From: Escherichia phage AV118
Sequence record: OR352948.1
Length of the DNA: 64,000 nucleotides
Reading direction: 5' to 3' (one strand)
Positions 1-36,604 of the stretch are shown piece by piece. The position numbers and the translations under genes are program-made. A model generated the notes under the pieces. That model was not told the DNA's origin. It saw nothing but the letters and a program-made list of their open reading frames with translations, and searched no databases. The number at the start of each line of letters is the position of its first letter. The stretch's first letter is position 1.

Positions 1-325
1 TTGTGAACACATCATGGTTTTGGCAAAGACGAATATAATCCTGTTCATAAACGTCAAGAACCGAGTCCGCATCTTGTCGAATACGTCCGTAAACCCAGTT
101 ACTAATATATCCACGGTCTAACAGATAAATCTTAGTAGGGTCTAAATAATTCAACATCGTTTCGAAACAGCCAACTTCATTTCGAGACTTAACATCGAAA
201 CGTCCATCAACTGTTCGTTTAGGGAAATCAATCTTTACATATCTTTCACTAATTTCCATTATGTCATTAATGAAAGTTGTTTTACCAGCATTATCCGGTC
301 CATCTACTAAAATAATTTTAGCCAT
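1..325 (-). CDS. P-loop nucleoside/nucleotide kinase-like protein (N-terminal part; gene runs off window edge)
   Basis: Manual minus-strand translation from ATG 325..323: MAKIILVDGPDNAGKTT (Walker A) ... LLDRGYISNWVYG (DRY-like kinase motif); truncated at position 1. Confidence 0.5.
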   Translation of the reverse strand, partial: MAKIILVDGPDNAGKTTFINDIMEISERYVKIDFPKRTVDGRFDVKSRNEVGCFETMLNYLDPTKIYLLDRGYISNWVYGRIRQDADSVLDVYEQDYIRLCQNHDVFT

Positions 326-326
326 T

Positions 327-1226
327 TTATTCCTCGATTACGACATCTTCATATTTAGGTATATTATATGGTGAAGAAATTAAAGCATTAAAGTAGATGA
401 ACTCACCAAGACCTGGATGAAATACTTCTTCAGGATTTTCGAAATATTGAATCTTCGGACGTCCTTTAAGAATTTGATAGTACTCGGTTTTAGTTGGTTT
501 AAAAATTCGAATCAACGCTTCTTCAGGATACTTATTTCTGTCAAAGCTATTATTTGGATCTGTTATATAAAGCGGTTGACCTAATTGAATTGCGCATTCA
601 ACAACTTGTTCAAAACGATAGCATGGGTCACTAATTCGAAATGGATGAAAAATACCATCTAGATTAATAGGAGCCAAATCACCTACAAGACGCTGCATGA
701 TGGAAGGACGTATAACTTTCTGCGTTACGATAATCTTATTACCATCTGCACCTGCGTTAACCAGCACTTCTTTTTGACGTTCATTCAACACAGTTGTTTG
801 GATTGAACGATTAACCGACAATATGTCGGTTTTTAAGAATTCGTCAATATAAAAACGTGGTTTATTAGGGTCTGCGGTGATATTGAAATTGAATTCTACA
901 TCAAAAGCGCCGTCATATCCAGTGATATCTGTGATTAGAAAATCACAATCATAATAAGCAATTAATGAATCAACCACAAATTCATTTTCAGACCAGAAAT
1001 ATTTACGAGTGTTATACGCGTTATCTTTATACCATAATGGAACAAACTTAAATTCTGGAAAAAGACGTTCGCATTCTTTAATATCAGATGCATTACGTGG
1101 ATATGTAATCACATCACCCGGATTAGCACGGTGCAAATGAAGTTGGAAGTTGCCATCCTTAAGGATAGCATACTGTCCAGTTTCATAAGACCGCATACTC
1201 AAGATAGGTACGCGGAAAATAGCCAT
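327..1226 (-). CDS. hypothetical protein at the T4 beta-glucosyltransferase position (candidate DNA-sugar transferase, unproven)
   Basis: 299-aa ORF, ATG start overlapping gp42 stop (TAATG); no motif I can assign with confidence; possible DxD-like DCD near residue 93. Confidence 0.5.
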   Translation of the reverse strand: MAIFRVPILSMRSYETGQYAILKDGNFQLHLHRANPGDVITYPRNASDIKECERLFPEFKFVPLWYKDNAYNTRKYFWSENEFVVDSLIAYYDCDFLITDITGYDGAFDVEFNFNITADPNKPRFYIDEFLKTDILSVNRSIQTTVLNERQKEVLVNAGADGNKIIVTQKVIRPSIMQRLVGDLAPINLDGIFHPFRISDPCYRFEQVVECAIQLGQPLYITDPNNSFDRNKYPEEALIRIFKPTKTEYYQILKGRPKIQYFENPEEVFHPGLGEFIYFNALISSPYNIPKYEDVVIEE

Positions 1227-1942
1227 TAGTCAAGGAATCCTTTAACATAATCAAAATCACGTTCAAACACATGGGCACTTACCATGGTATGAGTATAATC
1301 ACCAACTTCTACACCACATTCGTTAGCGATATAATGAAGTAATTTTCCTTGGAGATAAAAATCCAACTGCATAACAACAGCACAGTTCTGAGAACGCATA
1401 TGACAGTGGGTATAAAGCTTACCATCACGAATATAATAAGTCACTGAGTCAGTACATGGATATTCAAGCGTTTCGTCTGAATCAAGCAAAGCCTGATCAG
1501 AACTTTCTAGAATTTGGAACACAACTCTTCGGGAGTTAGGCTTCTCTTTAAGTTCTTTTAGAAGAGCTGGTAATTGAGCCGCAATGCGAGGACCATAGAA
1601 AGTGTTGAAGTTCGCCGGCAAAACATCTGATTTTGGTTTAGAAATAAATTTAGCGACATTAGGATATGCCTTAAACGCTTCTTCTGCATTGGTACCACCA
1701 GAAATCATAAACTTCCAGAAGTCTTCGGCATATTCATAAGAGATGCGGTTAATACGTGGGTCGGTCATTTTGAATGTCGATGGAGTGTCAACAACTACTG
1801 TCATAGACCCAATTTCATTACAACGTCCAATACGAGAATCAGTTACGAATTCCGGGTTTTCTAAAATTTCACGATTGACTGCTTTAAATGCGGCTTGAAA
1901 ATCTGCGGCTTTGATATATTTCATTGTGTTATGTTTTCCCAT
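1226..1942 (-). CDS. 42: dCMP hydroxymethylase
   Basis: 238-aa ORF, thymidylate-synthase-like core with PCTDS catalytic-Cys region; size and position as T4 gp42; SD GAGGTAAAC before ATG. Confidence 0.8.
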   Translation of the reverse strand: MGKHNTMKYIKAADFQAAFKAVNREILENPEFVTDSRIGRCNEIGSMTVVVDTPSTFKMTDPRINRISYEYAEDFWKFMISGGTNAEEAFKAYPNVAKFISKPKSDVLPANFNTFYGPRIAAQLPALLKELKEKPNSRRVVFQILESSDQALLDSDETLEYPCTDSVTYYIRDGKLYTHCHMRSQNCAVVMQLDFYLQGKLLHYIANECGVEVGDYTHTMVSAHVFERDFDYVKGFLD

Positions 1943-2124
1943 GTTTACCTCAATACAATTTATTATATACTCAATTTGTAAAGCTTATTTGAATTTCTTG
2001 ACAATGTTGATATAACGTAAAGCTTCAGCATCGATACTTCCAAGAACACTATGAAGAAATGCGTCAGCGTAGTATTCCAATTGAACAGGTTTCTTTAATC
2101 ACTTTAGCCGCTTTAGTTTTAAAC

Positions 2125-2145
2125 AGGCCCATCAGGGCCTTTTTA
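2125..2145. terminator. GC-rich hairpin AGGCCC-ATCA-GGGCCT followed by T5 (orientation ambiguous)
   Basis: Inverted repeat plus T-run read directly; lies between gp42 and the 391-aa gene. Confidence 0.3.
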
Positions 2146-2221
2146 AGAATTTGTTCGTTAGTGTTCAGTTTAATAGTCAAAATCTCTTCGTTAAGTTTAT
2201 AATTAAAAGTTTTTCTAGAAA

Positions 2222-3397
2222 TCATTCCGGGTACCTCAAAGCGTCATCAGAGTTAGTTATATCAATAATAGATATAGAGTTTTCTGCTAACCCGTTTTTA
2301 GATAATTGACGTTTATAATATCTTTCACAATATGTACACGTCGTCCCGCAGATTTCATTAGCACAATCGAAATCTGGATGTCTGAACCACCTTTTTTCTA
2401 AAAAGCCATCTAACAAAGAGGTTTCAATATTTACTGTATGTGAAAACTCAGTTTCGTTTTCAAGAGTGAAAATGGTCTCTAAAGGCTTCCACAGTTCTAA
2501 CAAATTACCTTCAAACTTTTCAGAAGCGTATGCTTCAAGAACTTTCAAAATGTAGTCTGTGCTACCTGTACGTCCTGAAACTTTGAATTGAGTGATACCA
2601 ATATCATTATAAAGTTTCAAATCTTGAGGACGAACAAAACGAGTTCTCAACCAGTTAAATGGGTCTGTATCACGAGCTTTAATACAGTGCTGCATAGGAT
2701 ATCCGTTTAAGGATTTAGCATCATCAGCTGTAACATCAGTACTATGGAAAATATAGCAAGAGTCACGATAGCTACAATGTGTTGTATACCCTTTACCAGC
2801 ATTAGAACAGAACTCATTTACAAGAACTTCAAATATTATATTGTTCTTATTGCAAAACTCTGCTGCACGCTTCAGGAAAGAAACTGAACGGTTCTTATGA
2901 ATTCCACAGCAGACCTTTTTGATATTATATTGGTCATGCAAGTATTTGATTTGAGTTACAGCATCGACATGTAGAATTGTTGAAACTTCAATCTCAATGT
3001 CTTTATTGACTTCACGAACAATTTCCATAACAACAGGGTTAGCGATAGTAATACGCCATACGCCTATTGACCAAAGATACTGAACATAATCCTGAATAGC
3101 TTTCTTCTTCCACTCAACTAGTTCTCTTTTTGAACCAGGATTTATCGTGTTGAGTGTATAGTTAAAGCAAATACCTAATTCGTTACAACGTTTAACGTAA
3201 TCTTCTAACATCTTTTTGTCAACGTCAGGAAGCCTAAAATCAGGTCTGGCTGCTACAAAAGCCATTTCTCTTGTAGAGCCGTATACTTCGTTTATCAAGC
3301 TATTAGGATAAGTTTTATTGAGCTCTACGATTTTATCAAGAAGAGCTAAATCAAAATTCGTTCCAATTTTAAAAGTATTCATTTTTTTGCATCTCAC
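2222..3397 (-). CDS. Cys-rich protein of unknown function (weak peptidase-U32-like / Fe-S enzyme resemblance)
   Basis: 391-aa ORF; Cys cluster FCSNAGKGYTTHCSYRDSC and C-terminal CANEICGTTCTYC; start may be internal Met (MNTFKIG). Confidence 0.6.
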   Translation of the reverse strand: MRCKKMNTFKIGTNFDLALLDKIVELNKTYPNSLINEVYGSTREMAFVAARPDFRLPDVDKKMLEDYVKRCNELGICFNYTLNTINPGSKRELVEWKKKAIQDYVQYLWSIGVWRITIANPVVMEIVREVNKDIEIEVSTILHVDAVTQIKYLHDQYNIKKVCCGIHKNRSVSFLKRAAEFCNKNNIIFEVLVNEFCSNAGKGYTTHCSYRDSCYIFHSTDVTADDAKSLNGYPMQHCIKARDTDPFNWLRTRFVRPQDLKLYNDIGITQFKVSGRTGSTDYILKVLEAYASEKFEGNLLELWKPLETIFTLENETEFSHTVNIETSLLDGFLEKRWFRHPDFDCANEICGTTCTYCERYYKRQLSKNGLAENSISIIDITNSDDALRYPE

Positions 3398-3438
3398 GTT
3401 AATTGATGCGATGGTTTTTGCAGGTCTTACTTAAATTA

Positions 3439-3840
3439 TTATAGATTCGGTTTATATGATTTAAATGTTTCGAATTCGCCTTTATTCATAAGAGCTTTGA
3501 ATTCGTCAGGACGCATAGCTTTGTCGTCGATAATCCAATCATATACTGGTTTATGTGTTAGCAAATTATGGTACTTCAAACCAATGTTTTCCAAGTTCTG
3601 AATCAGACTTGGGAGAATGTCAATTGCTATACGTCCAGGACCTACTGACTTCATACCGCGAGCAGTGTAAAGCGTTATGGTATGCCCTGCATCATACAGG
3701 GCATTAATGGCAGACACCATTTCGACGTCTGGTTTGAAGTTCACGTAATCACGATTGTTATTCCACTCTGTTATACAATCATCGACATCAAAACAAAGAT
3801 TAAGCATGTTTTCTACACGGTGCATTAGATTCGTTCCCAT
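3439..3840 (-). CDS. HAD-superfamily phosphatase-like protein (putative sugar-phosphate phosphatase)
   Basis: 133-aa ORF; N-terminal FDVDDCIT (DxD motif I-like), LYTARG, HKP, IIDD motifs in HAD order. Confidence 0.55.
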   Translation of the reverse strand: MGTNLMHRVENMLNLCFDVDDCITEWNNNRDYVNFKPDVEMVSAINALYDAGHTITLYTARGMKSVGPGRIAIDILPSLIQNLENIGLKYHNLLTHKPVYDWIIDDKAMRPDEFKALMNKGEFETFKSYKPNL

Positions 3841-5510
3841 TGATGAGTGATATCGCCACCGATTGGACGATAGGAAACACCAGTTTCTTTATCAGTTAGT
3901 ACCCATTTACCAGGATTTTTTGTAATCAGAGTAGCCGTTACAGGTTCTGCTACGTCATAACTAATAGAGCCGTCTTGAAGTACACGGCCCATATTACGTA
4001 ATTGCTTAGTCAGAAGTTCCATACCTTTATAATATGCGGCTACCGCTTTAAGTGGATTATTCTTGAAATAACCACCTAATGCAATCCAGATAATTGCCAC
4101 TGCCAAATGATGATACTCGTTAAACGAACTCATCTTTCCATATTTGTAAACTAATGGATTGATGTTAATAGTCACATTACAAGTTGTTTCATCAATAGTA
4201 AACTGTCCCCAGGTCGGATTAGCATTGAATTCATCATAACCTGAAACAGCATAAAGCACTTTAGCTTCATCATACAATTTTGGCCCGTAAATCTTGGTTT
4301 CGCCAAAATATCCACGAGGGTCGATAAACTTGACTTCGCCGTTATCAGTAATCATAGTATTACTGAAGTTCGGGTCACCATGAATAACAGAGTACTGTCC
4401 CTGAGAACGGTTATGATAACGAATAAGGTGTTCTAAAGCTTGTTTCAGCATTGGCTTCAGACGTCCAATCTTAGTGTAGTTCACATGTGTGATTTTACCA
4501 AATGAATCAATCAATGGTTGAATGCTTTCACAACGATCAATAACTTTCGTATAGAATTCTTTAGTGAAATCACGACGAACAGTTTCAGGACTTACAAAAT
4601 AAGTGTCTGTGCTGAATTTCAGTGCATCTAAAATTGCATCAACAATTTGTGGACGAGCAAGACTTGATTTGGATTTAATATATTCAAATGCCGGCTTACC
4701 TTTAATGCGTTCCATTTCAAAGTTATTTTCATTAACAGAAACTAACTGAGGAACTGAATCTGATTTCACTTTCAAATACCACGAAATCTCATCTTTCTGA
4801 AGAGCTCGACCCTGTTCGGTTAATGCGAATTTAGTTACAGTTTCTTCACCAATTTCAACTGCATTAAAACTACGATTAAGTTCACGAACTTCATGAGCCT
4901 TTTCAAGTTTAGGCATATCACCAAGGTCGATGATATTCATAAGCTCTGATTTATTGAATGCGCCACTGTAAAGGAATTCTACGAAATCACGTCCTTTGCA
5001 GTATTCATGAATTTCCTCATCAGTAGAACCCATATAGAATTCCCAGTCTTTGAACTGATAAATTCCTACAACATTACCACCTGTTGAACCTACGTTAGTG
5101 ATATTTTCACCGTCGAAATTATATCGACATTCGTCACCCTTAACATAGATTGCATTAACATTCCAAGACCATGAACCAAAATCGGGAATAATATCACACC
5201 AGTTAACAATTACGTTATGGCCGTCTAAATCTTTGTGTAATTTAGCAAGAGCATAAGCAGAACCATACGCTTCATCAACTGTACGAATAGTCACATTGAA
5301 CCCTTCTTGCTCACAATAAGCTCGAACAGTTTCAGCAAATTTTGAATGAACTACTACAATAATTTCATCTGCGCCAAGGTCAGAATAAATTGTATACAAA
5401 TTGCTCAGAATAGTGTCTTGTTTATAGTTAACAAGCACCTTAGGAATATGATGCGTTATTGGATACAAACGAGTTGCCAGTCCAGCACCAAGAATAACAG
5501 CTTTTTTCAT
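3825..5510 (-). CDS. bifunctional sugar-1-phosphate nucleotidyltransferase / sugar kinase (APH-like kinase domain)
   Basis: 561 aa; N-term ILGAGLATRLYPIT..PK (GxGTRLxPxT NTase signature); C-term VIHGDPNFSN...FIDPRG (Brenner kinase motif); SD GAGGA 7 nt upstream. Confidence 0.8.
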   Translation of the reverse strand: MKKAVILGAGLATRLYPITHHIPKVLVNYKQDTILSNLYTIYSDLGADEIIVVVHSKFAETVRAYCEQEGFNVTIRTVDEAYGSAYALAKLHKDLDGHNVIVNWCDIIPDFGSWSWNVNAIYVKGDECRYNFDGENITNVGSTGGNVVGIYQFKDWEFYMGSTDEEIHEYCKGRDFVEFLYSGAFNKSELMNIIDLGDMPKLEKAHEVRELNRSFNAVEIGEETVTKFALTEQGRALQKDEISWYLKVKSDSVPQLVSVNENNFEMERIKGKPAFEYIKSKSSLARPQIVDAILDALKFSTDTYFVSPETVRRDFTKEFYTKVIDRCESIQPLIDSFGKITHVNYTKIGRLKPMLKQALEHLIRYHNRSQGQYSVIHGDPNFSNTMITDNGEVKFIDPRGYFGETKIYGPKLYDEAKVLYAVSGYDEFNANPTWGQFTIDETTCNVTININPLVYKYGKMSSFNEYHHLAVAIIWIALGGYFKNNPLKAVAAYYKGMELLTKQLRNMGRVLQDGSISYDVAEPVTATLITKNPGKWVLTDKETGVSYRPIGGDITHQWERI

Positions 5511-5551
5511 GTTGAAGTCCTCATTGGTAAGTAGGAGTATTGTACACTATT

Positions 5552-5695
5552 CTAGTTAAAGCATTCATACTTTGCTTGTAGTCCAATCATAATCCATCCA
5601 ATTACAAGTGTTGGAATCATTACCGGAGCCGTTAAGCTCCAGTAGATAGTCATGACAAGCATCAATAGTAAAAGTCCTATTGTTATTGCTTTCAT
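5552..5695 (-). CDS. small hydrophobic membrane protein (47 aa)
   Basis: Manual translation MKAITIGLLLLMLVMTIYWSLTAPVMIPTLVIGWIMIGLQAKYECFN; ATGA start/stop overlap with upstream SIS gene; below ORF-track size cutoff. Confidence 0.35.
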   Translation of the reverse strand: MKAITIGLLLLMLVMTIYWSLTAPVMIPTLVIGWIMIGLQAKYECFN

Positions 5696-6327
5696 TGTTC
5701 GCCTCGTAACATGGCACCTAGTGCACCGCCTGGATGGAACTTAAGGAAATCATTAGAGGTAAATCCACGTTCAGACGAAAGGTTGATAGCAAACGTATCG
5801 ATAAGCGCTAACAACAATGTAGTGGACATTGTCGGAGCTAAAGAGTTCTCGTCAACTTCTACCGCGATACCAGTACAGAACGTATAATCAAAAAGAGCTT
5901 CGTATTCTTGTGGAATGTCAGGGTTACAATGTAACAGAATCTGTTTAACCTGAGGACGAATCATACGAAGATGTTTAGCAACACCTATCATTTCTTCAGT
6001 CTTACCAGAACGACTGATGTGAACTAATACATCATTAGGTGCAATAAATCCTGCGTCACCATGAGAATAATGCCCAGTGTTCAAGTACATACTTGGGATA
6101 CCGAGTGAAGCAAAAGTCTCGGAAGCTTTAGTTGCGATATTAGCGTTCTTACCAACACCTGTAATAATTACCCGGCTTTCATAATTACTAAGTCCAGGGC
6201 GTCGAAGAGTTTCTAGAATAGCGTTATAACGAGCAGGGTTTTGACTAATTACTTTAGCCATAGTGGCAAGAGATGAAGCTTGTTTTACGATTGCGTCAAT
6301 AGCGATAGTGATTGGTGTAGTTTTCAT
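5692..6327 (-). CDS. SIS-domain sugar-phosphate isomerase, KdsD/GutQ-like arabinose-5-phosphate isomerase
   Basis: 211 aa; ITGVGKNANIATKASETFASLGIPS, SHGD, ISRSGKT, LAPTMSTT, HPGGALG motifs match KdsD SIS domain. Confidence 0.8.
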   Translation of the reverse strand: MKTTPITIAIDAIVKQASSLATMAKVISQNPARYNAILETLRRPGLSNYESRVIITGVGKNANIATKASETFASLGIPSMYLNTGHYSHGDAGFIAPNDVLVHISRSGKTEEMIGVAKHLRMIRPQVKQILLHCNPDIPQEYEALFDYTFCTGIAVEVDENSLAPTMSTTLLLALIDTFAINLSSERGFTSNDFLKFHPGGALGAMLRGEQ

Positions 6328-6367: not shown

Positions 6368-9079
6368 TCAAAAATCAAACATATCGAACAGAGATGCTTT
6401 CTTCTCGTAATCGAGTTTAGCTGCTGATGTGAATCCTTCAAGTGGTTTAATAAATGTCTTCTCAAGGAGAACAGTGTAGTCCATCCAATGAAGTACATCG
6501 TCTTTAATTAAATCTGTGATTTCAGTACCAGAAGGCCATGCGATACATTTATCACCGAATGGGTTTCCTTCACGTAAAGGCAGAACATATACTTTTTCAC
6601 CTTCTACAACTTGCGGTGCATCGATATTACCTTTGATAGCCCGGTTATACGTCAGAATTCCACGAATATGGAACGGGCATTTAGGACCAGGGAATCCACC
6701 GACATCATATTTAGCAATGTTATTCGCAGAAGATACCGACGCGATGCTAATATAATTCAATTGACGGAATTCTTTTTCAAACTCTTTAAAATATTCTTGT
6801 AATGATTCTTCACCTTCTTGAAGCATACGACGAATACATTCTTTAAGAGCTTTCTGTACTGCTTTAGGGGTCGAAGATTTCTGAGTCTCTAGACCCATGA
6901 TTTTGAGTTTAGGCTCAGCGTAACGAGTGCCTTCCATATCCCACACGTTTAATGCATAACGTTTCTTACCAGTCCAGAATCCACCAATACCTTTAGAACC
7001 GAGCGGAGGACCAGCGATAGCTTCTCGGTCCATGAACATTAAGTGTTGTTTATTGTTCATGTATTCACACATTTCACGGAAACCTCTATCAATAGCTGGT
7101 TCCATACGTTCACGTGCAAACTTATCTAAGAAGTCTACCCAATGGTTGGTATCACGGAATTTAGATTCACCAACCTTATCGATAATTTTATCAGCAGATA
7201 CGTAAATAGAGTCTGTATCACCATAAAGAACGAAAGCTTTACCTTCTGTACCACAAACTTCATTCAGATATTCATTAACTTTACGTTCAATCCACTGTAA
7301 AGCCATTTGCCCGAATGTTGTGATTGCAGTAGCATTACGCAAATCATAATAACGGAACCAAACGTTGCCAAGTGCACCATAAAGTGAGTTGATAAGCAAT
7401 TTACGGTTAATTTGTGCAGTCATACCTGCAACTTCAGTACGTTGAGCTCTAAACAACATTTCATTAAGAGATTTAGCAGACAACTTTTTAATCTTTTCTT
7501 TAATCTCATCACTGAAGTCGAAACGATAATCAACATCTAATGGTTCGTCAATAGAAAGATTAGGATTATGCAATGCCTCTTTAATTATTTCACCATTACG
7601 TTGAGCTGCAAGCATGTAACCTTTATGTTCTTTACGTTGATTAAAGACCTTAGTGATTTCAGTTGGAACTACACCATCACGGTCTTTATAATACATCATG
7701 CCGTTAGGAGAGCAACTGTACACATCTGAAGGACGTTCAGCGATTGCGTTAATATAATCATGCAATGGAGCTACTTTAAACGTTCCTGCTATTGTTTCCG
7801 GGCTAATATTCACTTGGCGAATAATACTTGGATACAGAGATGTAAGGTCGAAACTCATTACATATTTGTATCGATTTGGAATAGGTTCCTTAACAAAAGC
7901 GCCAGGATAAGGTTGAACCGGGTGAGAACGACCTTGTGGAATCACCTTGTTTTGTTCTTTAAGGCTATTAAAAATAATAGCATCCCAAGTTTTAATTGGA
8001 CTGAACACAGATTGAATCTGAATTTTAGCATAATAACCCATGTCCAAGCTCAAGTTGATGAACTGACGCTTAGAATCAATTTGCAATACACGATACACGT
8101 CGATAATGTTATAAGAAATATATCGTTGGTGATTGCTTTCACGAAGCTTAGAAATAGGGCCGTCATATTTCAGTTTACCAACGTTCAATTCAAATTCTGA
8201 AATGTAATCCAGAGAATACGACGGTTGATTGGTAAAAGAGAATTTTTTGTAAAGGTCAATGTAATCAAGAACAGAGATACCGAACAATGTAATGATTTCA
8301 CGAGAACCATACATGTTTTCGATAACTTTAACACGAGTTTTACGATGTGGCGATAAACGTTTCGCAGTAGATTCGCCAAAAATATTCTTGATTCGGTTAT
8401 ACACATATGGAATATCAAATGACTCAACGTTCCATCCGGTTAAAATGACAGGAGTTTTCTGTTGCCAGAAATTGAGATATTCCATCAATAATTCTTTTTC
8501 ATTATCAAACGGCATATAAACAATTTTGTCGATAATTTCGGATGGAACTTCATCACCACCTTGTTCTTGAAGCTTAGCCGCAATTTCGATAGACCATTCT
8601 TCTACATTGCCGTATGGAGAATTCAAAAGGTCAAATACGTAGAACCTGTCGTCAATTGAGTCATAATGGGTGATAGCATCAATCGGATGTTTTGCTTGTG
8701 ACGGCTCAGGGAACCCGTCCGGAGATGTTACTTCGATGTCGAAGTTAGCCACACGAATTTTTGTATGGTCGTATTTGATTTCATAGTTATAAGTGTCAGA
8801 CAAATACGCCAATTTGAAATCGTCCATGCCAAGTGCTTCAAGTCCGATATCTTCCATGCGTTTAATCCATTGGGAGGCATCACGCATATTAGCGAACAAC
8901 TTACGAGTACACGGCTTACCGTAGATATCGAAATATTTCGTAGCCTGACTTTCCGGACAATGAGCAAACAGTGATGGTTTATATTCTACTTCACGAGTAC
9001 GTTCACGGCCATTAGAATCGATGTAACGTTCAAAAATTGAATCACCAATCTGTTCAACCGTTAAGTAAAATTCTTTCAT
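6368..9079 (-). CDS. 43: DNA polymerase (family B, T4/RB69-type)
   Basis: 903-aa ORF; exonuclease FDIE, polymerase motifs DLTSLYPSII, KILINSLYG, YGDTDS; SD AAGGAAA upstream. Confidence 0.97.
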   Translation of the reverse strand: MKEFYLTVEQIGDSIFERYIDSNGRERTREVEYKPSLFAHCPESQATKYFDIYGKPCTRKLFANMRDASQWIKRMEDIGLEALGMDDFKLAYLSDTYNYEIKYDHTKIRVANFDIEVTSPDGFPEPSQAKHPIDAITHYDSIDDRFYVFDLLNSPYGNVEEWSIEIAAKLQEQGGDEVPSEIIDKIVYMPFDNEKELLMEYLNFWQQKTPVILTGWNVESFDIPYVYNRIKNIFGESTAKRLSPHRKTRVKVIENMYGSREIITLFGISVLDYIDLYKKFSFTNQPSYSLDYISEFELNVGKLKYDGPISKLRESNHQRYISYNIIDVYRVLQIDSKRQFINLSLDMGYYAKIQIQSVFSPIKTWDAIIFNSLKEQNKVIPQGRSHPVQPYPGAFVKEPIPNRYKYVMSFDLTSLYPSIIRQVNISPETIAGTFKVAPLHDYINAIAERPSDVYSCSPNGMMYYKDRDGVVPTEITKVFNQRKEHKGYMLAAQRNGEIIKEALHNPNLSIDEPLDVDYRFDFSDEIKEKIKKLSAKSLNEMLFRAQRTEVAGMTAQINRKLLINSLYGALGNVWFRYYDLRNATAITTFGQMALQWIERKVNEYLNEVCGTEGKAFVLYGDTDSIYVSADKIIDKVGESKFRDTNHWVDFLDKFARERMEPAIDRGFREMCEYMNNKQHLMFMDREAIAGPPLGSKGIGGFWTGKKRYALNVWDMEGTRYAEPKLKIMGLETQKSSTPKAVQKALKECIRRMLQEGEESLQEYFKEFEKEFRQLNYISIASVSSANNIAKYDVGGFPGPKCPFHIRGILTYNRAIKGNIDAPQVVEGEKVYVLPLREGNPFGDKCIAWPSGTEITDLIKDDVLHWMDYTVLLEKTFIKPLEGFTSAAKLDYEKKASLFDMFDF

Positions 9080-9137
9080 TTAATTTCCTTTAGACGAGTT
9101 ATTGTCTTTTGTTTGTTGATGAACTTATTATACTCCA

Positions 9138-9157
9138 AATGGGACCGAAGTCCCATT
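9138..9157 (-). promoter_or_regulatory. stable hairpin (8-bp stem, UUCG loop on mRNA) upstream of gene 43; candidate translational operator/RNA element
   Basis: AATGGGAC-CGAA-GTCCCATT inverted repeat in regA-43 intergenic region. Confidence 0.35.
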
Positions 9158-9160
9158 GCT

Positions 9161-9529
9161 TTAATTACCAATTGTATATTTTGCTTTCAAAGTCCAGTCA
9201 TCTTTCTGTTTAAAAGAGATAACACGGAAGTTATTAGTAAGGCCAAATAGATCTTCACGAGCAGAGTCTTCAATAACAATCAATCCCCAGTCTTCAAGCA
9301 ACTGGGCAATCGAATCACGTCGCTGATAGTCTTCACCGTCAATATCAACCTGACGTCCATCCATACGCAGCATTTCTTTAAAGTGGACGATGTAGTATTT
9401 ACCTTGCTTTTGGAGGATATGACAGGACTGATAAAGGACTTTATCCTTGTTATTAGCGATGCCCATACGGGTCAGAGTCTCTTTGACTTTCAGAAAATCT
9501 TCAGGGTTCTTCAATTTAATTTCAATCAT
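9161..9529 (-). CDS. regA: translational repressor RegA
   Basis: 122 aa from ATG 9529 (MIEIKLK...); sequence and position between gp62 and gp43 as in T4. Confidence 0.9.
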   Translation of the reverse strand: MIEIKLKNPEDFLKVKETLTRMGIANNKDKVLYQSCHILQKQGKYYIVHFKEMLRMDGRQVDIDGEDYQRRDSIAQLLEDWGLIVIEDSAREDLFGLTNNFRVISFKQKDDWTLKAKYTIGN

Positions 9530-9531
9530 TT

Positions 9532-10095
9532 TTACCATTCCAATGCTAATTTTTTAAATTGTTTTTGTTCTTTCACATTTTTTGTAACTTCTTTGAGAAA
9601 CTCATCAGTGACCATGGCCTTCAGTTCTTTAAGGACTATTGGCAGCTTGTTATTTTTTTCAAGGAGCCGTTTATACTCGGTGGCATCATTCATGTTGATT
9701 GTGTAATGTTTCATCAACAATTTGATAACTAGTAACTCTGAAGTGTCTTCGACTAGTTTAGCCCATTTAGAGAATCGTCGGCCACGTGGAATTGCCGCCA
9801 TCATATAGTTGAAGTGCGCTTCATCACTTAATTCAGAACCGACTAAGTTCATCATGTAAACAGCTGGCATACATTCCTGGAACTGGGATAATGAGTTCTC
9901 AACCATAAATTTTGAGTAGTCGACCTGAGCAATTGACATAGATTTCTTTTCATTAATAGCATTAATGATTTTAAAGAATTCGTTCTCAGGTTTTTCTTTA
10001 AACATGTCAGCACATTTTTGAATCGCATCAGCGTCATTAGACTTCCATGCAATTTGGTGCTCGTTAAGTTGGACGTCATCATCAAATAAGTTCAT
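9532..10095 (-). CDS. 62: clamp loader small subunit
   Basis: 187-aa ORF directly downstream of gp44; size/synteny of T4 gp62. Confidence 0.85.
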
Positions 10096-10096
10096 A

Positions 10097-11059
10097 TTAT
10101 TTCCAAGTCAGTTCGCAGGTCAGTTGAAGAAGCATATACATAACATGTAATTCAATATTACTTGCTAATCCATGAAACTTATTATTTTCGCCTGCAATTT
10201 CATAAAGCGAAATAATACTTTTACCTGGTGCAACTTGGTCATAACATTCTGAAACTAATTTATCGATGAACCATGAATAATCTGCAGCATATTTTGGAGC
10301 TAATGCACGAAGTTGTTTGATATCTTTGTTCTTCATTGCTTCTATGACATCATCTACCGTGCCACGGTCATTAGTTACGATAGACAAAATACCCGCATCA
10401 AGAACACCTTTAGACGAGTACTGGTCTAATTGACCAATTGTACGACGAAAGTCCGGGAAGTTCTTTTTAACCAGAGCTGCAACAACTTTCATATCAGCGA
10501 TTTCGATATTTTCGTTCTTACAGATTTCAACCATACGATGAATCATTTTCTTCATCATCGAGATTTTATCTTCTTCGGTTGGACGTCCGAATTCGATAAC
10601 TCGACAACGACTACGTAACGGTTCGATAATTCCATCGATGTTGTTAGCAGTAATAATAATAGAACAGTTACTAGAGAATTCTTCCATAAACGTACGAAGG
10701 TGACGTTGTGATTCGGCGAGGCCACTACGGTCAAATTCATCGATAACGATAACTTTCGGCTTGCCTTCCATTGAGACTGAACGAGCGAATGCAGTTAATG
10801 GACCACGCACAAAATCAATCTTACAATCAGAACCGTTGACGAACATCATTTCGGCATTAATATCATTACATAATGCTTTTGCTACGGTTGTTTTACCTGT
10901 ACCAGGAGAAGGAGAGTGTAAAATAATATGAGGAAGTTTTCCTTTAGATACTAAAGACTTGAATGTTTCATGGTCATACGCAGGCAGAATACATTCGTCA
11001 ATGGAAGAAGGACGATATTTCTGTTCTAGAATGTGTTCTTTGGAATTGATAGTAATCAT
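10097..11059 (-). CDS. 44: clamp loader large subunit (AAA+ ATPase)
   Basis: 320 aa; Walker [11 protein letters not shown], Walker B VIVIDEFD. Confidence 0.95.
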
Positions 11060-11134
11060 GTAATTTTCCTCATTATCATTAAACTGGAGGATTTCTCCTC
11101 CATAATCGTATCACAATAAACGTAAAGCTTTGAC

Positions 11135-11821
11135 TTAGAAGTCGTGAGTAGAATCGGCTTCCATCGCAATAACATAACTTACTTGAGAGCTTTCAAACTT
11201 GGCTGCAACTTTATCACCAGCTCCCCACAACATTACTTTATAGTTACCTGGCTGGATTTTCATATTAGCCATATTGATTACGAAGTTAAAGTTGTTAGAA
11301 CCATCATAATCGGTAAGAGTCAAAGAATACTTAGGACGAGTTAGTCCTGAATCTTCAACTTTATTATAGCCATTGATAACAATTTTACCATCTTTATTTG
11401 TAATAGCAATTGTATCAATCTGAAGACCACGTGAAACTCGAAGCAATTGTTGAAGGTCTTCAGCTTTAATTTCAGTAATCACAGAAGCTACTGGGAATTG
11501 AATTGGCTTATTAGGAAAAACAATTGTGCTCTTGTCAGCGGCAGGCCAATAAACTGTGGAACGTGTATCTGCAATTTTAATATTGCCATCAGTGTGCATT
11601 GAAATTTCAGCATCATCAGACACTAGACTCAAAATGCTTAAGAAGCTATTCAAATCATAAAGTGCTACGTCAAAATCAATTTCATCAGAGATATTTGCTT
11701 CCGCATAAGTGGTGCCATTAACTGCACGAGTCATAATAAATTTACCTTGACTCAGCAGAATGCCAGAGTTAATAGAAGCGAAGTTTTTCAGAATATTTAC
11801 GGTTTCACGGCTAAGTTTCAT
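11135..11821 (-). CDS. 45: sliding clamp
   Basis: 228-aa ORF; sequence and size match T4 gp45. Confidence 0.95.
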   Translation of the reverse strand: MKLSRETVNILKNFASINSGILLSQGKFIMTRAVNGTTYAEANISDEIDFDVALYDLNSFLSILSLVSDDAEISMHTDGNIKIADTRSTVYWPAADKSTIVFPNKPIQFPVASVITEIKAEDLQQLLRVSRGLQIDTIAITNKDGKIVINGYNKVEDSGLTRPKYSLTLTDYDGSNNFNFVINMANMKIQPGNYKVMLWGAGDKVAAKFESSQVSYVIAMEADSTHDF

Positions 11822-12708
11822 TTAGGTTTCCTATTAGCATAATAATTTGTCCAAGACCGGATAGCACCTTGGTATGATTCATCATTAAAACCATGCTGAA
11901 TTGCATGTTTTCTAAATGTAATATAACTTGGTTTTCCTAAAGCAATCCACAATTCCTTTAATTTTTGTTCATGAAATATCCATGTACCTCTAGCTTTAGA
12001 TTTTCTGAATTTATCCTTAAATTCTTTGGTTGCATTTCTTTTCGAAGCTGCGATAGAGGCCTTTGCTCTATTTTCAGGTTTAGACCAATACAATGTTTTA
12101 GATATTTTTATTTTATCTTTAACATTAGGAGAATTCATTATATCTTTAAATTTTAAAGCAAAATCTCTATCGCTAAACATTTTTTTAGAAAGAATAGAAA
12201 CTTTCTCTCTTCGTTCTTTGGTCCAATATGTTTTTTGAAATTCTCTAATTGCGTTTAAATGATTCTCCGACAATTTGCAATTTTTTCTAACACCGACGTA
12301 ATCTTCGTTTATTTCGTTTTTAGAAAGTTTTACTATTTTGCCTGTTTTTAAATTTTTATACGGTGCATATCCTTTAGCTGATATTCTAGACTTCTCGTTA
12401 GCATAAGCCTTATTAAAATATTTTTCATTTGAAACGGCTTTAACATTGAGTTGGAATAGTCTTTCTATTCTTCTAGGGTCTAATGTGGTTTCGCCTAAAA
12501 TTTTTACAGAATATTCGCCTTGGTCTATTAATCTGGTATATAAAGGAGAATACGAGGAATTAACACTACCGGTATATATTTTACCGGTAGAATCTTCAAT
12601 AATATCCTTTCCATTAAAATGACACGAAACTTTAGAACCTATATAATAACACGGGTATTCATTTTTAATCTCACGATTATAAAAGGTTATAAGATATATT
12701 AAATTCAT
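11818..12708 (-). mobile_element. GIY-YIG homing endonuclease gene (Seg-like), free-standing between rpbA and gene 45
   Basis: 296 aa from ATG 12708; N-term LIYLITF...YYIGSK; basic HTH-like C-terminus; paralogous to ORFs at 16570 and 23522. Confidence 0.6.
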
Positions 12709-12713
12709 AATTA

Positions 12714-13130
12714 TCAAGCAGCAACCATCTGCTTTTTAATAGTTTCAGGCAGTGATTCAATATATTCTGGAATTTTAGAAGCAACAATTTCGCCAGCTGC
12801 AATTAGTTGTTCGTCGGCATCAACACAGTAGGAATCTTCCAGACGCTCAGAACCGTCTTTATCAAGAACGATTTTTGCGCCAGCTTCAATAGAATCGTTA
12901 TAGTGCTTACGCATCAGATGAATCCACATATCAGATACATCGTTATCAATAAAACCATAAATCATAAAACGAGTTTCTTGTGGCAAAGATTGGAGTTTTT
13001 TAGCACTTGCGTCATCACAATGCAGGACCCATGCTTTACGAACACGATTATGGTTATGTGGGTTAGCGTCAGTACGGATAGAAGTAACTTTCAGATCAGC
13101 AGCAGTGAAACCTTTAGCAGTAGTAAACAT
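12714..13130 (-). CDS. rpbA: RNA polymerase-binding protein RpbA (by synteny)
   Basis: 138-aa ORF between gp46/45.2 and gp45 region; start uncertain. Confidence 0.5.
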   Translation of the reverse strand: MFTTAKGFTAADLKVTSIRTDANPHNHNRVRKAWVLHCDDASAKKLQSLPQETRFMIYGFIDNDVSDMWIHLMRKHYNDSIEAGAKIVLDKDGSERLEDSYCVDADEQLIAAGEIVASKIPEYIESLPETIKKQMVAA

Positions 13131-13142
13131 ATTATTTCTCTC

Positions 13143-13343
13143 TTATTCGTAGAAGTCGGTAACTGTCCATGCAGAATTGCGATTAGACATTATTTTATTA
13201 TACTCGTCTTTAAAAGCAGATTTGAGCATTTGTTCAGTAACAATATGTTCTTCACCTGAAAACGTATTGGTCAGAACATATTTTTTAATTTCAGGGACAA
13301 CAAGAAGATGTTGTCCGGTTGAATACTCCATGTTGTTCTCCAT
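13143..13343 (-). CDS. hypothetical protein (45.2-like)
   Basis: 66-aa ORF between gp46 and rpbA. Confidence 0.5.
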   Translation of the reverse strand: MENNMEYSTGQHLLVVPEIKKYVLTNTFSGEEHIVTEQMLKSAFKDEYNKIMSNRNSAWTVTDFYE

Positions 13344-13385
13344 TTAATTTGATGTGGTCATTATAACCACATCGTGTTAAAGCGT

Positions 13386-15074
13386 TTATGAAACAGTCAT
13401 TACCGTAAATCGTCCAACTTTGCTCATTTGAAGATGTTGTCCATAAGCTTGTGGGTCATGGTCTCTGTGACTAATTATAAACACGTTTGCATCGGTTAGA
13501 GAGTTAAGAATTGTTGAAATAGCTTTAATACCTTCAGAATCAGTCGCGGAATCCATGACTTCGTCCATAATTAATGTATTGATTCTAACACCAGAGACCT
13601 TTTCAGCAATATCTCGCCATGTAAACAACAACGCGATATCGATACGTGCTTTTTCACCTTGACTAAATGAAGCATAACTGAACTCTTCACGACCACGTGA
13701 TTTTATAGATTCATTGAATTCTTCGTCAATAGAAAACACGTAATCAGCTTCCATGATTTTAAGATAATGGTTAATCTGCTTGTTGAACAGAGGCACATAT
13801 TTTTTAATGATAGCACCTTTAATACCAGAATCTTTTAACATATCTGTGATAATACCACGATGGTATTTTTCAAGAACGATATCCGATTTTGTTTTAATGA
13901 TTTTATCAAGTTCTTTTTGAAGCAAAGCTATCTCATCGGCATGGTCGATAAATTCCGCTGAGGCTTGTTCTATTGCAGCTTTAACTTTCTTAGCTTTATC
14001 AATAGTGGCAATCATTGCTTGTTTCTTGGTACGAATATCAGATGCAAGGTCCTGTTTAGTCTTAACATTAGCTCTATATTCGTCCACTAGGACACTCAGA
14101 TTATCTCTGTGGCAGGTAAGTTGCTCGAATGAGTGATTACATTCATGAAGCTTATCGGTAATCTTAGAGACAATAGGATCACCCTGGTGCAACTGTGATG
14201 CGCAAGTAGGACATGTACCGCCATCATGATACATCTTAATAACTTTGTTGTATGAGTCAATTTTAGATTTAATCAAGAATGCTTCTTGTCCTATCTTGTT
14301 GAATGCCTCAGTAGGGTCTTCATCAAGAACGATATTAAGTAGTCGCTCATTAGCTTCTTCGATTTCTGCTTTTAATGAACGAGCTTCTTTAGCTAGGTCG
14401 TCATACATATTCTGTAGACGCGCTACATTATCACCAGATAATTTCTTTTGACGTTCGATATTCTCGTTATAAATCTTAATTTGTTGGATAACACCATCTT
14501 TCTTGGCATCGAGAACTTGTCCCTGGGAATTAAGTTCTCGAACTTGAGACTTATTGATTTTATCCATTTCAGCGAGTGTGCCGACTTCTAAAAGGTCTTC
14601 GACAAGTTTTCTACGAGCAGGGGTGCTAAGAGCCATGAAAGGGGTATACCCTGCCGTCCCAAGCACAACGATCTGTTTAAAAGACGCGTATGACATTCCG
14701 ATGCTACGTTCAAATTCTTCTTGGAAGTCACGACTGCTGGCAGATTCATCAAGACGAACACCGTCAACGGAGATTTCGAAAATATTGGGCTTTTGGCCAC
14801 GTTTAATGAAGTATTTTTTATCATCGAATTCCATCCAAAGCTCAACTAAGAGCTCTTTCTTGTTCGTGCTATTAATGATTTGTCCTTTCTTAACATCACG
14901 AAATGGTTTACCGAAAAGTCCGAAAGTAATGGCTTCTAACATCGTAGATTTACCACCGCCATTTTTACCAGTGATTAATGTCTTTTGAACTTTATCTAAT
15001 TGGATATCAATAGGATTCCCACCTACCGACATGATGTTTTGATAACGAACACGATTTAATTTAAATGATTTCAT
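13386..15074 (-). CDS. 46: recombination endonuclease subunit (Rad50/SbcC-like ATPase)
   Basis: 562 aa; Walker A GKNGGGKST, coiled-coil middle, Walker B IMDEVMD. Confidence 0.95.
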   Translation of the reverse strand: MKSFKLNRVRYQNIMSVGGNPIDIQLDKVQKTLITGKNGGGKSTMLEAITFGLFGKPFRDVKKGQIINSTNKKELLVELWMEFDDKKYFIKRGQKPNIFEISVDGVRLDESASSRDFQEEFERSIGMSYASFKQIVVLGTAGYTPFMALSTPARRKLVEDLLEVGTLAEMDKINKSQVRELNSQGQVLDAKKDGVIQQIKIYNENIERQKKLSGDNVARLQNMYDDLAKEARSLKAEIEEANERLLNIVLDEDPTEAFNKIGQEAFLIKSKIDSYNKVIKMYHDGGTCPTCASQLHQGDPIVSKITDKLHECNHSFEQLTCHRDNLSVLVDEYRANVKTKQDLASDIRTKKQAMIATIDKAKKVKAAIEQASAEFIDHADEIALLQKELDKIIKTKSDIVLEKYHRGIITDMLKDSGIKGAIIKKYVPLFNKQINHYLKIMEADYVFSIDEEFNESIKSRGREEFSYASFSQGEKARIDIALLFTWRDIAEKVSGVRINTLIMDEVMDSATDSEGIKAISTILNSLTDANVFIISHRDHDPQAYGQHLQMSKVGRFTVMTVS

Positions 15075-15325
15075 ATGTATTCTCTTCGAATGAAGTCCTC
15101 TACATATTTTAACATGTCATCCCTATCAGCAAAATATTCATCTAGTTCTGCATACATAACAACACCTGGTGCATACTCACAGGTAACATACATTGTTCCA
15201 AAGAAACGAGGAGTTGATTCCTCGTAATTCTCAGTCCATTCAACGATACCAATATAACCGTCACCAATACTAAATTCATGACGATGGATTTCATAATCAG
15301 TCTTCGTCATTATACGCATCCTCAA
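15071..15325 (-). CDS. hypothetical protein (46.1-like)
   Basis: 84-aa ORF between gp47 and gp46. Confidence 0.5.
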   Translation of the reverse strand: MRMRIMTKTDYEIHRHEFSIGDGYIGIVEWTENYEESTPRFFGTMYVTCEYAPGVVMYAELDEYFADRDDMLKYVEDFIRREYI

Positions 15326-15554
15326 TACACGCTTCAGCCATTTTAAGAATAGAGCCAGGAGTATCGTTGTCCATTATATTAAAGCTAAATTCAATAGCCC
15401 AGTCAGTGCAGACATGAACTGCTTTAACTTCATTGCCTTCAACGCGTAATGGCTCAATCCAATACTTGATAGTGTTCTCGAATCCATCGTCATCTTTAAC
15501 GTCCATTTCAACTTCAAGCCTGAGTCCAGCATTGTTAAATTCATCTAAAGTCAT
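15297..15554 (-). CDS. hypothetical protein (46.2-like)
   Basis: 85-aa ORF, overlaps neighbours by a few nt. Confidence 0.5.
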   Translation of the reverse strand: MTLDEFNNAGLRLEVEMDVKDDDGFENTIKYWIEPLRVEGNEVKAVHVCTDWAIEFSFNIMDNDTPGSILKMAEACIEDAYNDED

Positions 15555-36125: not shown

Positions 36126-36604
36126 TCAACAATCACAATTTCTAGTTTAGTGGAATACGTATCTAAAATCTCTTCGATGACATCCCAGTTTCCACCACCA
36201 ATACCTGCACCAATTCTTGGCATATAAATTACAGGCTTTGTTATCTTATTCTTTCCGAATTCATTTAATTCTATTATACAATTCATTAAAGCAGAGTACT
36301 CAAAATTAGGTCCCGGCTCAAACTGTGTATAAAGATTAAAGCAATAAGCTTTATGGGTCTTAAAATATTTTTCATAAACCGAATAAGTCCCGAGTTTAGA
36401 CTTGTCTCCGAATTCGGTTTGAAGTTTATCGGCTTCTAAAATTTTTGGATAAGCCTTTGCTAATTGGCCTGCTACACCGGCGCCCATTGTATGAAAACAA
36501 TTACACCCATGAGCAATATTATTACCTTTAGAAAACAGGGCGACAATATCGCCCTTGATATAGTTTTTAATCACTTGCTGCAAGTCCTCTATTATAAGAG
36601 TCAA
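36107..36604 (-). CDS. macro-domain protein (ADP-ribose binding/processing)
   Basis: 165 aa; GDIVAL...HGCNCFHTMGAGVAGQLA and YMPRIGAGIGGG motifs typical of macro domains. Confidence 0.6.
   Translation of the reverse strand: MTLIIEDLQQVIKNYIKGDIVALFSKGNNIAHGCNCFHTMGAGVAGQLAKAYPKILEADKLQTEFGDKSKLGTYSVYEKYFKTHKAYCFNLYTQFEPGPNFEYSALMNCIIELNEFGKNKITKPVIYMPRIGAGIGGGNWDVIEEILDTYSTKLEIVIVDWEPLL

Follow-up and report, generated by a model that had tools for sequence, protein, structure and literature searches.

The predicted arabinosyl-5-hydroxycytosine gene island of Escherichia phage AV118 and its candidate oxygen-independent pyrimidine hydroxylase of the U32 family

Which DNA modification is served by the gene island that precedes the DNA polymerase gene in Escherichia phage AV118 (sequence record OR352948.1), and what does each of its genes contribute? 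We analyzed a 64,000-nucleotide (nt) stretch of this record, referred to here as the window, in which a sequence-only reading had placed four enzyme genes and a small membrane open reading frame (ORF) at positions 2222-6327 and had proposed a pathway for pentosylated hydroxymethylcytosine (hmC). Our analysis indicates that the island is almost certainly the sugar-donor half of the Mosigvirus arabinosyl-5-hydroxycytosine DNA hypermodification system. With the exception of one protein, it is already known as the activated-arabinose gene cluster of RB69-like phages, published in 2018, 2025, and 2026. The exception is a cysteine-rich protein of the peptidase U32 family (hereafter U32), which we propose, with slightly better than even confidence, to hydroxylate a deoxypyrimidine nucleotide at C5 without O2, in a prephenate-dependent reaction. 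To the explanation as a whole, comprising the core pathway and the U32 proposal, we assign a probability of about 0.8.

The core of this explanation rests on the close agreement between the window and RB69. The first 9.1 kb of OR352948.1 share 98-99% DNA identity with about 150 Mosigvirus genomes, including APCEc01, JS09, Bas47, and NicPhage, and this comparison places the source phage in Mosigvirus as a relative of RB69. The five co-oriented ORFs that had been described at 2222-6327 were all found, each on the minus strand, and the domain matches of the SIS, NTP_transferase, U32, and HAD proteins are far above chance. They are equivalent to RB69 gp50-gp55, and the wider gene order equals that of RB69 gp45-gp56. 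Protein identity to RB69 is 96.7% for the SIS protein, 98.4% for the HAD protein (gp51), 99.5% for U32, 98.3% for the ThyA-like protein (gp48), and 99.1% for the fusion protein, the last when compared with the corrected single RB69 ORF53_52c. Matches to the SIS, NTP-transferase, U32, and ThyA domain profiles are well above the curated cutoffs. The island also extends leftward past position 2222, taking in an ORF of 53 amino acids (aa), a ThyA-family gene, a GT-B gene, and a partial P-loop kinase gene. From the left end of the window to the DNA polymerase gene, each substantial ORF lies on the minus strand in a tightly packed arrangement, with stop and start codons that overlap or nearly abut at the SIS/47-aa, AfhE/HAD, U32/53-aa ORF, ThyA-like/glycosyltransferase (GT), and GT/kinase junctions. 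The GC content of the island (0.34-0.41) is the same as that of its flanks and of the surrounding genome. Scans for sigma-70 promoters and terminators gave matches no more numerous than in shuffled sequence. The features are as follows, with the evidence for each in brackets.

1..325, minus strand: partial P-loop nucleotide kinase, homologue of RB69 gp45/"thymidylate kinase", running off the left end of the window (hidden Markov model (HMM), RB69 order)
327..1226, minus strand: predicted GT-B fold glycosyltransferase, 299 aa, homologue of RB69 gp46:47 (GT-B fold; T4 beta-gt position)
1226..1942, minus strand: predicted thymidylate-synthase-family dCMP 5-hydroxylase (5-hydroxy-dCMP, or 5hodCMP, synthase), RB69 gp48 (Pfam, PDB, residue signature)
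2064..2225, minus strand: 53-aa ORF, truncated copy of RB69p049 (phrog_8601 match, RB69 alignment)
2222..3397, minus strand: peptidase-U32 family Fe-S-type protein, cysteine-rich, RB69 gp50 (Pfam PF01136, AlphaFold2 (AF2) model, hhalign)
3439..3840, minus strand: predicted HAD-superfamily phosphatase, 133 aa, RB69 gp51/HY126 AfhF (PDB 9IQW, EcbF/BcbF)
3825..5510, minus strand: predicted bifunctional kinase/nucleotidyltransferase, 561 aa, RB69 gp52:53/HY126 AfhE (Pfam, motifs, RB69 identity)
5552..5695, minus strand: 47-aa hydrophobic (membrane) ORF, RB69 ORF054c family (phrog_3610 over its full length)
5692..6327, minus strand: predicted SIS-only D-arabinose-5-phosphate isomerase, 211 aa, RB69 gp55 (KpsF/GutQ, KdsD, and PDB matches)
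6368..9079, minus strand: DNA polymerase gp43, 903 aa, right flank and outside the pathway (annotated so in all matching genomes)

The chemistry of this system has been worked out in several relatives. Thomas et al. 2018 detected arabinose in the DNA of RB69, put forward the SIS protein and the fused ORF53_52c as enzymes of UDP-arabinose synthesis, and first reported the modification as arabinosyl-hmC (ara-hmC) (PMC6024577). Using mass spectrometry (MS) and nuclear magnetic resonance (NMR), Lee et al. 2026 identified 5-hydroxycytosine (5hoC) carrying one or two ether-linked D-arabinofuranoses and showed that RB69 gp48 makes 5-hydroxy-dCMP and binds flavin (PMC13326640). An independent study of the Mosigvirus NicPhage arrived at the same base and called the hmC assignment erroneous (PMC13390438), and mono- and di-arabinosyl-5-hydroxy-dC have been measured in RB69, NicPhage, and others (PMC13326640, PMC13390438). 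In the work of He et al. 2026 on phage HY126, as summarized in PMC13326640, the oxygen source is O2. AfhE converts arabinose-5-phosphate (A5P) to arabinose-1,5-bisphosphate, AfhF removes the 5-phosphate, and AfhE then forms UDP-arabinofuranose (UDP-Araf). According to that summary, AfhE and AfhF are enough to lead from A5P to UDP-Araf, with no free arabinose. Two of the window proteins are near-identical to solved structures, the hydroxylase to 9IQC/9IQU and the phosphatase to 9IQW. These entries appear to come from phage HY126, as judged from the neighboring entry 9IQZ, "phage HY126 glycosyltransferase".

The window holds predicted counterparts of AfhE and AfhF together with a predicted A5P isomerase, and no sequence feature in it contradicts the core pathway. 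In such a pathway, the SIS isomerase would divert ribulose-5-phosphate to D-arabinose-5-phosphate, which the C-terminal kinase domain of the 561-aa enzyme would convert to arabinofuranose-1,5-bisphosphate. The HAD phosphatase would then yield arabinofuranose-1-phosphate, from which the N-terminal nucleotidyltransferase domain of the 561-aa enzyme would make UDP-arabinofuranose. The genes on the left would provide the acceptor and the transferase: the ThyA-family, flavin- and O2-dependent enzyme would make 5-hydroxy-dCMP, the gp45-like kinase would help raise it to the triphosphate, and the GT-B transferase would join arabinose to the 5-hydroxyl.

Profile and structure searches on the individual proteins uphold the SIS, HAD, and NTP_transferase assignments and identify the cysteine-rich ORF as a U32 protein. 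The SIS protein had been described as a KdsD-like A5P isomerase, and this description stands. It scores 39 bits against Pfam SIS, 110.7 bits against KpsF/GutQ, and 105.3 bits against KdsD, and in the PDB it most resembles 3ETN (E 9.5e-25) and 5UQI, both SIS-only isomerases, and the SIS domain of KdsD (2XHZ). Its scores fall below the equivalog cutoffs for KdsD (105 versus 505) and GutQ (79 versus 481) because the two CBS domains of those enzymes are absent (211 versus 328 aa). We predict that it works like KdsD/GutQ, grouped with the SIS-only isomerases. The 561-aa protein matches Pfam NTP_transferase at residues 3-99 (39 bits) and, weakly, kinase families at residues 344-409; its translation contains GAGLATRL, which fits the nucleotidyltransferase motif GxGxRL, and HGDPNFSN/FIDPRG, which fit the kinase motifs HGDxxxxN/IDxxG. 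The HAD protein matches PDB 9IQW with an E value of 4.5e-87, is a relative of 1XPJ, and scores 50.5 bits against the NCBIfam EcbF/BcbF phosphatase model; a match of this protein to GmhB in the AlphaFold database has been reported (PMC13326640).

On the acceptor side, the gene adjoining the island had been taken for a dCMP hydroxymethylase, an assignment that its residues do not bear out. The ThyA-like protein scores 56.9 bits against Pfam Thymidylat_synt and is about 97% identical to PDB 9IQC/9IQU. Aligned to E. coli ThyA, it carries E143, C146, N169, and D177, that is, the L143E, D169N, N177D signature, with Asn at position 169 in place of the Asp of a T4-type dCMP hydroxymethylase. By these features, the window's "42" homologue is a flavin/O2-dependent 5-hydroxy-dCMP synthase. 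A pentosyl-hmC system, in which gp42 would be a dCMP hydroxymethylase, free arabinose would be an intermediate, and all four enzymes would act on the sugar, is thus highly improbable. It can draw on the original report of ara-hmC in RB69 (PMC6024577) and on Table 1 of PMC13326640, where the HAD and kinase reactions are written as A5P to arabinose to arabinose-1-phosphate. However, the text of the latter paper, after He et al., gives the 1,5-bisphosphate route, the NMR and MS data show arabinose ether-linked to C5-O of 5-hydroxycytosine, which refutes hmC for RB69, and the ThyA homologue bears the D169N hydroxylase signature and is near-identical to proven enzymes. Of the pathway in the sequence-only reading, the general idea survives: a nucleotide-activated arabinose made from the product of an A5P isomerase and feeding DNA glycosylation in RB69-like phages agrees with the published work (PMC6024577, PMC13326640). 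Its base has to be replaced by 5-hydroxycytosine with ether-linked arabinofuranose (PMC13326640, PMC13390438), and its sequence of steps by kinase, phosphatase, and uridylyl transfer, the order in the HY126 summary. That reading had left undecided whether the gene set was already characterized; for the arabinose pathway it is, and for the U32 protein it is not.

The sequence-only reading had also recognized no glucosyltransferase gene at the T4 positions. The literature does describe RB69 as lacking T4 alpha-gt and beta-gt (PMC6024577, PMC13326640), but the 299-aa protein at 327-1226 has a GT-B fold and occupies the T4 beta-gt position, adjoining the ThyA homologue. A role as first arabinosyltransferase on 5-hydroxycytosine has been proposed for its RB69 homologue, gp46:47. 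The translation of the partial kinase starts MAKIILVDGPDNAGKTT and is matched by a local HMM of gp45-like kinases at E 1e-53.

The U32 protein is the part of the island that the published pathway leaves without a role. The sequence-only reading gave it 391 aa, which is correct for the ORF counted from its GTG; the family alignment begins at ATG 3382, the likely start, giving 386 aa. The protein matches Pfam PF01136 (Peptidase_U32) at 42.2 bits, compared with a cutoff of 22.4. Its AF2 model has a predicted local distance difference test (pLDDT) score of 93.5, and the best PDB match of this model in Foldseek is the U32 protein 5D88 (E 4.9e-7), so the modeled structure has the U32 TIM-barrel fold. 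A search of PDB sequences with the U32 family profile returned no match. Alignment of a 112-member profile to RlhA with hhalign spans the catalytic region with a probability of 86% (E 5e-6), and the invariant residues E190, C203, and C209 (numbered from ATG 3382) align with RlhA E161, C169, and C176, which are essential in RlhA. Ten cysteines are invariant or nearly so in 112-121 members of the family.

The characterized relatives point to hydroxylation. RlhA forms 5-hydroxycytidine in 23S rRNA (ho5C2501) and needs prephenate, an Fe-S cluster, E161, C169, and C176 (PMC5727448). Other characterized U32 proteins are likewise tied to O2-independent hydroxylation, TrhP to 5-hydroxyuridine at position 34 of tRNA (ho5U34) and UbiU/UbiV to ubiquinone precursors (PMC10990095), with prephenate as the oxygen donor (PMC10990095, PMC5727448). 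For gp50, Table 1 of PMC13326640 gives the entry "sugar or heterocycle reductase". The same paper remarks that the RlhA and TrhP pyrimidine hydroxylation pathways use no homologues of 5hodCMP synthase and does not mention the kinship of gp50 with RlhA and TrhP. A full-text literature search for any connection of phage DNA modification to U32, to chorismate mutase, or to prephenate yielded nothing relevant in the literature covered, which did not extend to He et al. 2026 and Mahler et al. 2025.

We therefore considered where the U32 subfamily occurs and what lies next to it. At E<=1e-3, the family has 1,713 representatives among 1.84 billion, of which 488 remain at E<=1e-30; it is a small and distinct subfamily found only in phage-like contexts. 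Matches to the window U32 were found in 221 phage records, all at least 80% identical. For the neighborhoods we defined a lineage as a 90% identity cluster and examined 34 lineages, 4 T4-like and 30 others, taking in 7-10 kb of flanking DNA to either side of each metagenomic homologue. In three of the four T4-like lineages, a type II chorismate mutase confirmed by Pfam lies 0-369 nt downstream of U32. In Erwinia phage Virsaitis27 this mutase is the gene after U32 (CM_2, 44.6 bits), and in Shewanella phage Thanatos-2, where U32 lies elsewhere in the cluster, the mutase has moved along with it (32.8 bits). By tblastn, the mutase is present in 54 phage records, all of them T4-like phages with U32 as judged by organism name and neighboring annotation. 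In 7 of the 30 non-T4-like lineages, the DNA within 700 nt of U32 encodes chorismate mutase, DAHP synthase, or both as a fusion, confirmed by scores of 39-72 bits for Pfam CM_2 and 216-237 bits for DAHP synthase models. A DAHP_synth_1 protein beside U32 could have been a KDO-8-P synthase, which uses A5P, but the scores (237 and 216 bits for DAHP synthase versus 63 bits for KDO8P) led us to reject this. We also dismissed as noise a tblastn match to chorismate mutase within the window at 36138-36305 (E 0.004, antisense to a 165-aa ORF), and we rejected the 53-aa ORF as a diverged chorismate mutase, since RB69p049 has no BLASTP or Pfam similarity to CM_2.

Constraint on U32 is strong. Between the window and Virsaitis27 or Thanatos-2, U32 is 81-84% identical, compared with 66-75% for the polymerase and 56-72% for AfhE. 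The proportion of identical codons at conserved residues is about 50% for U32 and its neighbor genes alike, which argues for purifying selection and against recent horizontal transfer as the cause of the high conservation.

Based on these observations, we propose that U32 is a second hydroxylase in the island, one that would act on a pyrimidine nucleotide at C5, most likely dCMP. The oxygen would come from prephenate and the reaction would depend on an Fe-S cluster, as has been proposed for RlhA, TrhP, and UbiU/V. In phages of facultative anaerobes, U32 would duplicate the O2-dependent ThyA-type enzyme and so provide an anaerobic route to 5-hydroxycytosine DNA, and for many uncultured phages it would stand in for that enzyme as the only encoded hydroxylase. 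E. coli offers parallels for such paired routes, in UbiI/H/F and UbiU/V for ubiquinone and in TrhO and TrhP for tRNA ho5U. The substrate is probably a mononucleotide, because T4-like phages remove dCTP before replication, because the neighbors of U32 are nucleotide kinases, dCMP deaminases, and dUTPases, and because the RNA-binding extensions of RlhA and TrhP are absent.

The genes around U32 in other lineages also bear on whether its substrate is instead the sugar, arabinose or UDP-arabinose, which it would reduce, epimerize, or tailor in some other way, the neighboring chorismate mutase being incidental. The position of the gene between the HAD phosphatase and the hydroxylase fits such a role, as do the label "sugar or heterocycle reductase" already mentioned, the Bas47 annotation "putative enzyme involved in UDP-arabinose biosynthesis", and a TIM-barrel fold weakly similar to those of aldolases and sugar isomerases. 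However, UDP-Araf synthesis is complete without U32 in the HY126 work as summarized, and the two sets of genes come apart in both directions. Escherichia phage JS98 (Dhakavirus) has the arabinose genes without U32, and none of the 57 Acinetobacter phage records with AfhE is among the 221 U32 matches. Conversely, 21 of the 30 non-T4-like lineages encode a homologue of the 299-aa transferase no more than 10 kb from U32, and in 10 of those 21 its gene directly adjoins or overlaps U32, forming a kinase-GT-U32 module around which the 10 kb examined hold no genes for arabinose synthesis; the AfhE-like fusion enzyme is carried by 11 of the 30. Moreover, a recurrent chorismate mutase or DAHP synthase neighbor has no role in pentose chemistry, and no U32 member is known to act on sugars. 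We consider a sugar-side function unlikely. In the simplest account, U32 would make the 5-hydroxyl of the pyrimidine and so belong to the acceptor side, with a predicted sugar pathway that is complete without it.

The same distribution speaks to an RNA substrate. RlhA and TrhP are the characterized U32 enzymes of nucleic acids and both depend on prephenate, and T4-like phages encode tRNAs, so the window protein might be a phage version of TrhP (tRNA ho5U34) or RlhA (23S rRNA ho5C2501) that a chorismate mutase supplies with prephenate. Yet RlhA (653 aa) and TrhP (453 aa) have additional C-terminal domains that are absent from the phage protein, and the latter was found only in phages with 5hoC glycosylation genes, always within the cluster or beside nucleotide kinases, dCMP deaminase, dUTPase, or a replicative polymerase. 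Tequatroviruses, which also carry tRNAs, are not among the U32 matches. An RNA hydroxylase is for these reasons quite improbable. Still less credence is due to a redox partner that passes electrons to the flavin of the ThyA-like hydroxylase, or to a genuine peptidase. Conserved cysteine clusters would suit electron transfer and "peptidase" is the database annotation, but a D169N ThyA homologue was found in none of the 30 non-T4-like lineages within the flanks examined, neither idea explains the linkage to chorismate mutase, and U32 proteolysis has no known mechanism, the characterized members being tied to hydroxylation. The sole ThyA near a non-T4-like U32 (lineage L032) was rejected as a 5hodCMP synthase, having the canonical L143, D169, and N177.

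Several observations weigh against the proposal of an O2-independent hydroxylase. Apart from the match dismissed as noise, tblastn with the Virsaitis27 enzyme found no chorismate mutase in the window, and Mosigviruses as a whole lack it, so these phages would have to rely on host PheA/TyrA. Of the three E. coli paralogues compared, only RlhA gave a significant profile alignment; those to UbiU and TrhP were not significant. The cysteines of the window family are spaced C192-x10-C203-x5-C209-x23-C233 and C340-x4-C345-x3-C349-x2-C352, which is sufficient in number for the canonical U32 4Fe-4S motif C-x6-C-x15-C-x3/4-C but differs from it in spacing. With flanks of only 7-10 kb, a ThyA-type hydroxylase could lie elsewhere on the genomes of the non-T4-like lineages. 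Among T4-like phages, U32 was found only in those of facultative anaerobes (Enterobacterales, Shewanella) and in none that infects Acinetobacter, but host oxygen lifestyle is a weak, phylogenetically non-independent correlate, and JS98 manages without U32 although its E. coli host is a facultative anaerobe; a strict rule that anaerobe hosts equal U32 was rejected on this ground. Finally, no U32 hydroxylase has so far been reconstituted in vitro (PMC10990095).

Other features of the cluster and of its relatives are recorded here. The 53-aa ORF matches positions 1-52 of the 79-position phrog_8601. In the alignment to RB69, an extra A in an A-run at about 2090-2092 shifts the frame and shortens the RB69p049 homologue from 79 to 53 aa. 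RB69 and phiE142 have the unshifted form, and the shifted 26-mer has no exact match in IMG/VR. The frameshift is either a real pseudogene or a sequencing error. The 47-aa ORF is 56-60% identical to ORFs at the same position in Virsaitis27 and JS98, and its family has 16 invariant residues, with the motif TIYW..P.MIPTL..W...Q.K..CFN. A SIS isomerase homologue was not found in the compared ORFs of JS98 (L009) and Thanatos-2 (L010), in which the other arabinose genes are kept; these two phages presumably rely on host KdsD/GutQ for A5P. In Virsaitis27 (L001, 5352-5990), a gene for a Seg-like homing endonuclease separates the HAD phosphatase gene from U32, and the cluster is therefore a site of mobile-element insertion.

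The uncultured lineages show further arrangements. Fused DAHP synthase-chorismate mutase genes, with the mutase C-terminal, lie beside U32 in L042 (8411-9433), L045 (7302-8357), L055 (11079-12197), and L043 (3-971), and these uncultured large phages thus encode the enzymes with which the shikimate route to prephenate begins and ends. In L005 (7447-9086) and L012 (6504-8083), contigs from large phages of which one spans 466 kb, U32 comes directly after a dCMP deaminase and a DnaE-type polymerase with no transferase nearby, a context in which the product could be 5-hydroxyuracil rather than 5-hydroxycytosine. Contig L006 has two U32 genes (8001-15428), 49% and 22% identical to that of the window. 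Their neighbors are a 5'-nucleotidase, a nicotinamide mononucleotide transporter, a deoxynucleoside kinase, a radical SAM/SPASM protein, and a nucleoside deoxyribosyltransferase-like gene, with a dockerin-bearing glycoside hydrolase beside them; the arrangement could represent another type of nucleoside-modification cluster, carried by an anaerobic Firmicute or by a prophage within it. A kinase-GT-U32 contig (L013, 8098-9000 and 12073-13179) carries a TAGT-like second transferase, a gene of the dUTPase/dCTP-deaminase family, and a UDP-galactopyranose mutase, a gene content reminiscent of the 5hoC modification with galactofuranose that is known from Rhizobium phage RL38JI.

The island accounts for the replacement of every cytosine in RB69-like phages by arabinosylated 5-hydroxycytosine, a change that blocks many restriction and CRISPR defenses. 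The window adds one more member to this settled system, and its remaining value lies in the U32 gene. The published hydroxylase needs O2, yet these phages infect gut bacteria; if our proposal is correct, U32 would explain how their DNA is built in the anoxic gut. It would also predict a host range that depends on oxygen and on the aromatic pathway, which is relevant to therapeutic coliphages of Mosigvirus. No U32 hydroxylase has ever been reconstituted, since those known act on ribosome precursors, tRNAs, or membrane-bound quinone intermediates. With a member that uses prephenate to hydroxylate dCMP, the family would gain its first small soluble substrate, and chemistry so far inferred could be followed in a simple assay. 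A large set of uncultured phages would then be recognizable by their kinase-GT-U32 module, whether or not chorismate mutase or DAHP synthase accompanies it, as carriers of glycosylated 5-hydroxypyrimidine DNA.

Among known systems, the closest is the RB69 (gp45-gp55)/HY126 (Afh) cluster, found also in Bas46/Bas47, NicPhage, Serratia LC53/92A1, and Acinetobacter DLP3. The window has the same genes as RB69 in the same order and orientation, with proteins 96.7-99.5% identical, and differs in the one-base insertion that truncates the RB69p049 homologue in the window only of the two. The ORFs that are split in the RB69 record (46/47 and 52/53) are intact in the window, as in the corrected RB69 sequence. 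Compared with the glucosyl-hmC system of T4, which uses gp42, alpha-gt, beta-gt, and host UDP-glucose, the base in the window would be hydroxylated (D169N, flavin, O2) and the sugar would be arabinofuranose. The window transferase shares with T4 alpha-gt only the GT-B fold. Unlike UDP-glucose in T4, the arabinose donor is not a host metabolite, and the phage must therefore make it.

The ADP-heptose route of GmhA/HldE/GmhB, which serves the biosynthesis of the lipopolysaccharide core, follows the same four-step logic with the same folds: a SIS isomerase, a bifunctional kinase/nucleotidyltransferase, and a HAD bisphosphate phosphatase. These similarities account for the recurrent mis-annotations "phosphoheptose isomerase" and "GlmU". 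The window pathway differs in using a pentose instead of a heptose and a uridine nucleotide, in the reversed domain order of its fusion enzyme, and in a kinase of the aminoglycoside/choline-kinase type rather than the ribokinase type. With RlhA, TrhP, UbiU, and UbiV, the window U32 has in common the U32 domain, the TIM-barrel core, and the Glu and two Cys of RlhA, and the C5-hydroxylation of a pyrimidine that is needed here is the reaction to which RlhA and TrhP are tied; a further point of agreement is the genomic linkage of the subfamily to prephenate supply. What sets the window subfamily apart from these enzymes is its C-terminal four-Cys cluster and its presumed substrate, a free deoxynucleotide.

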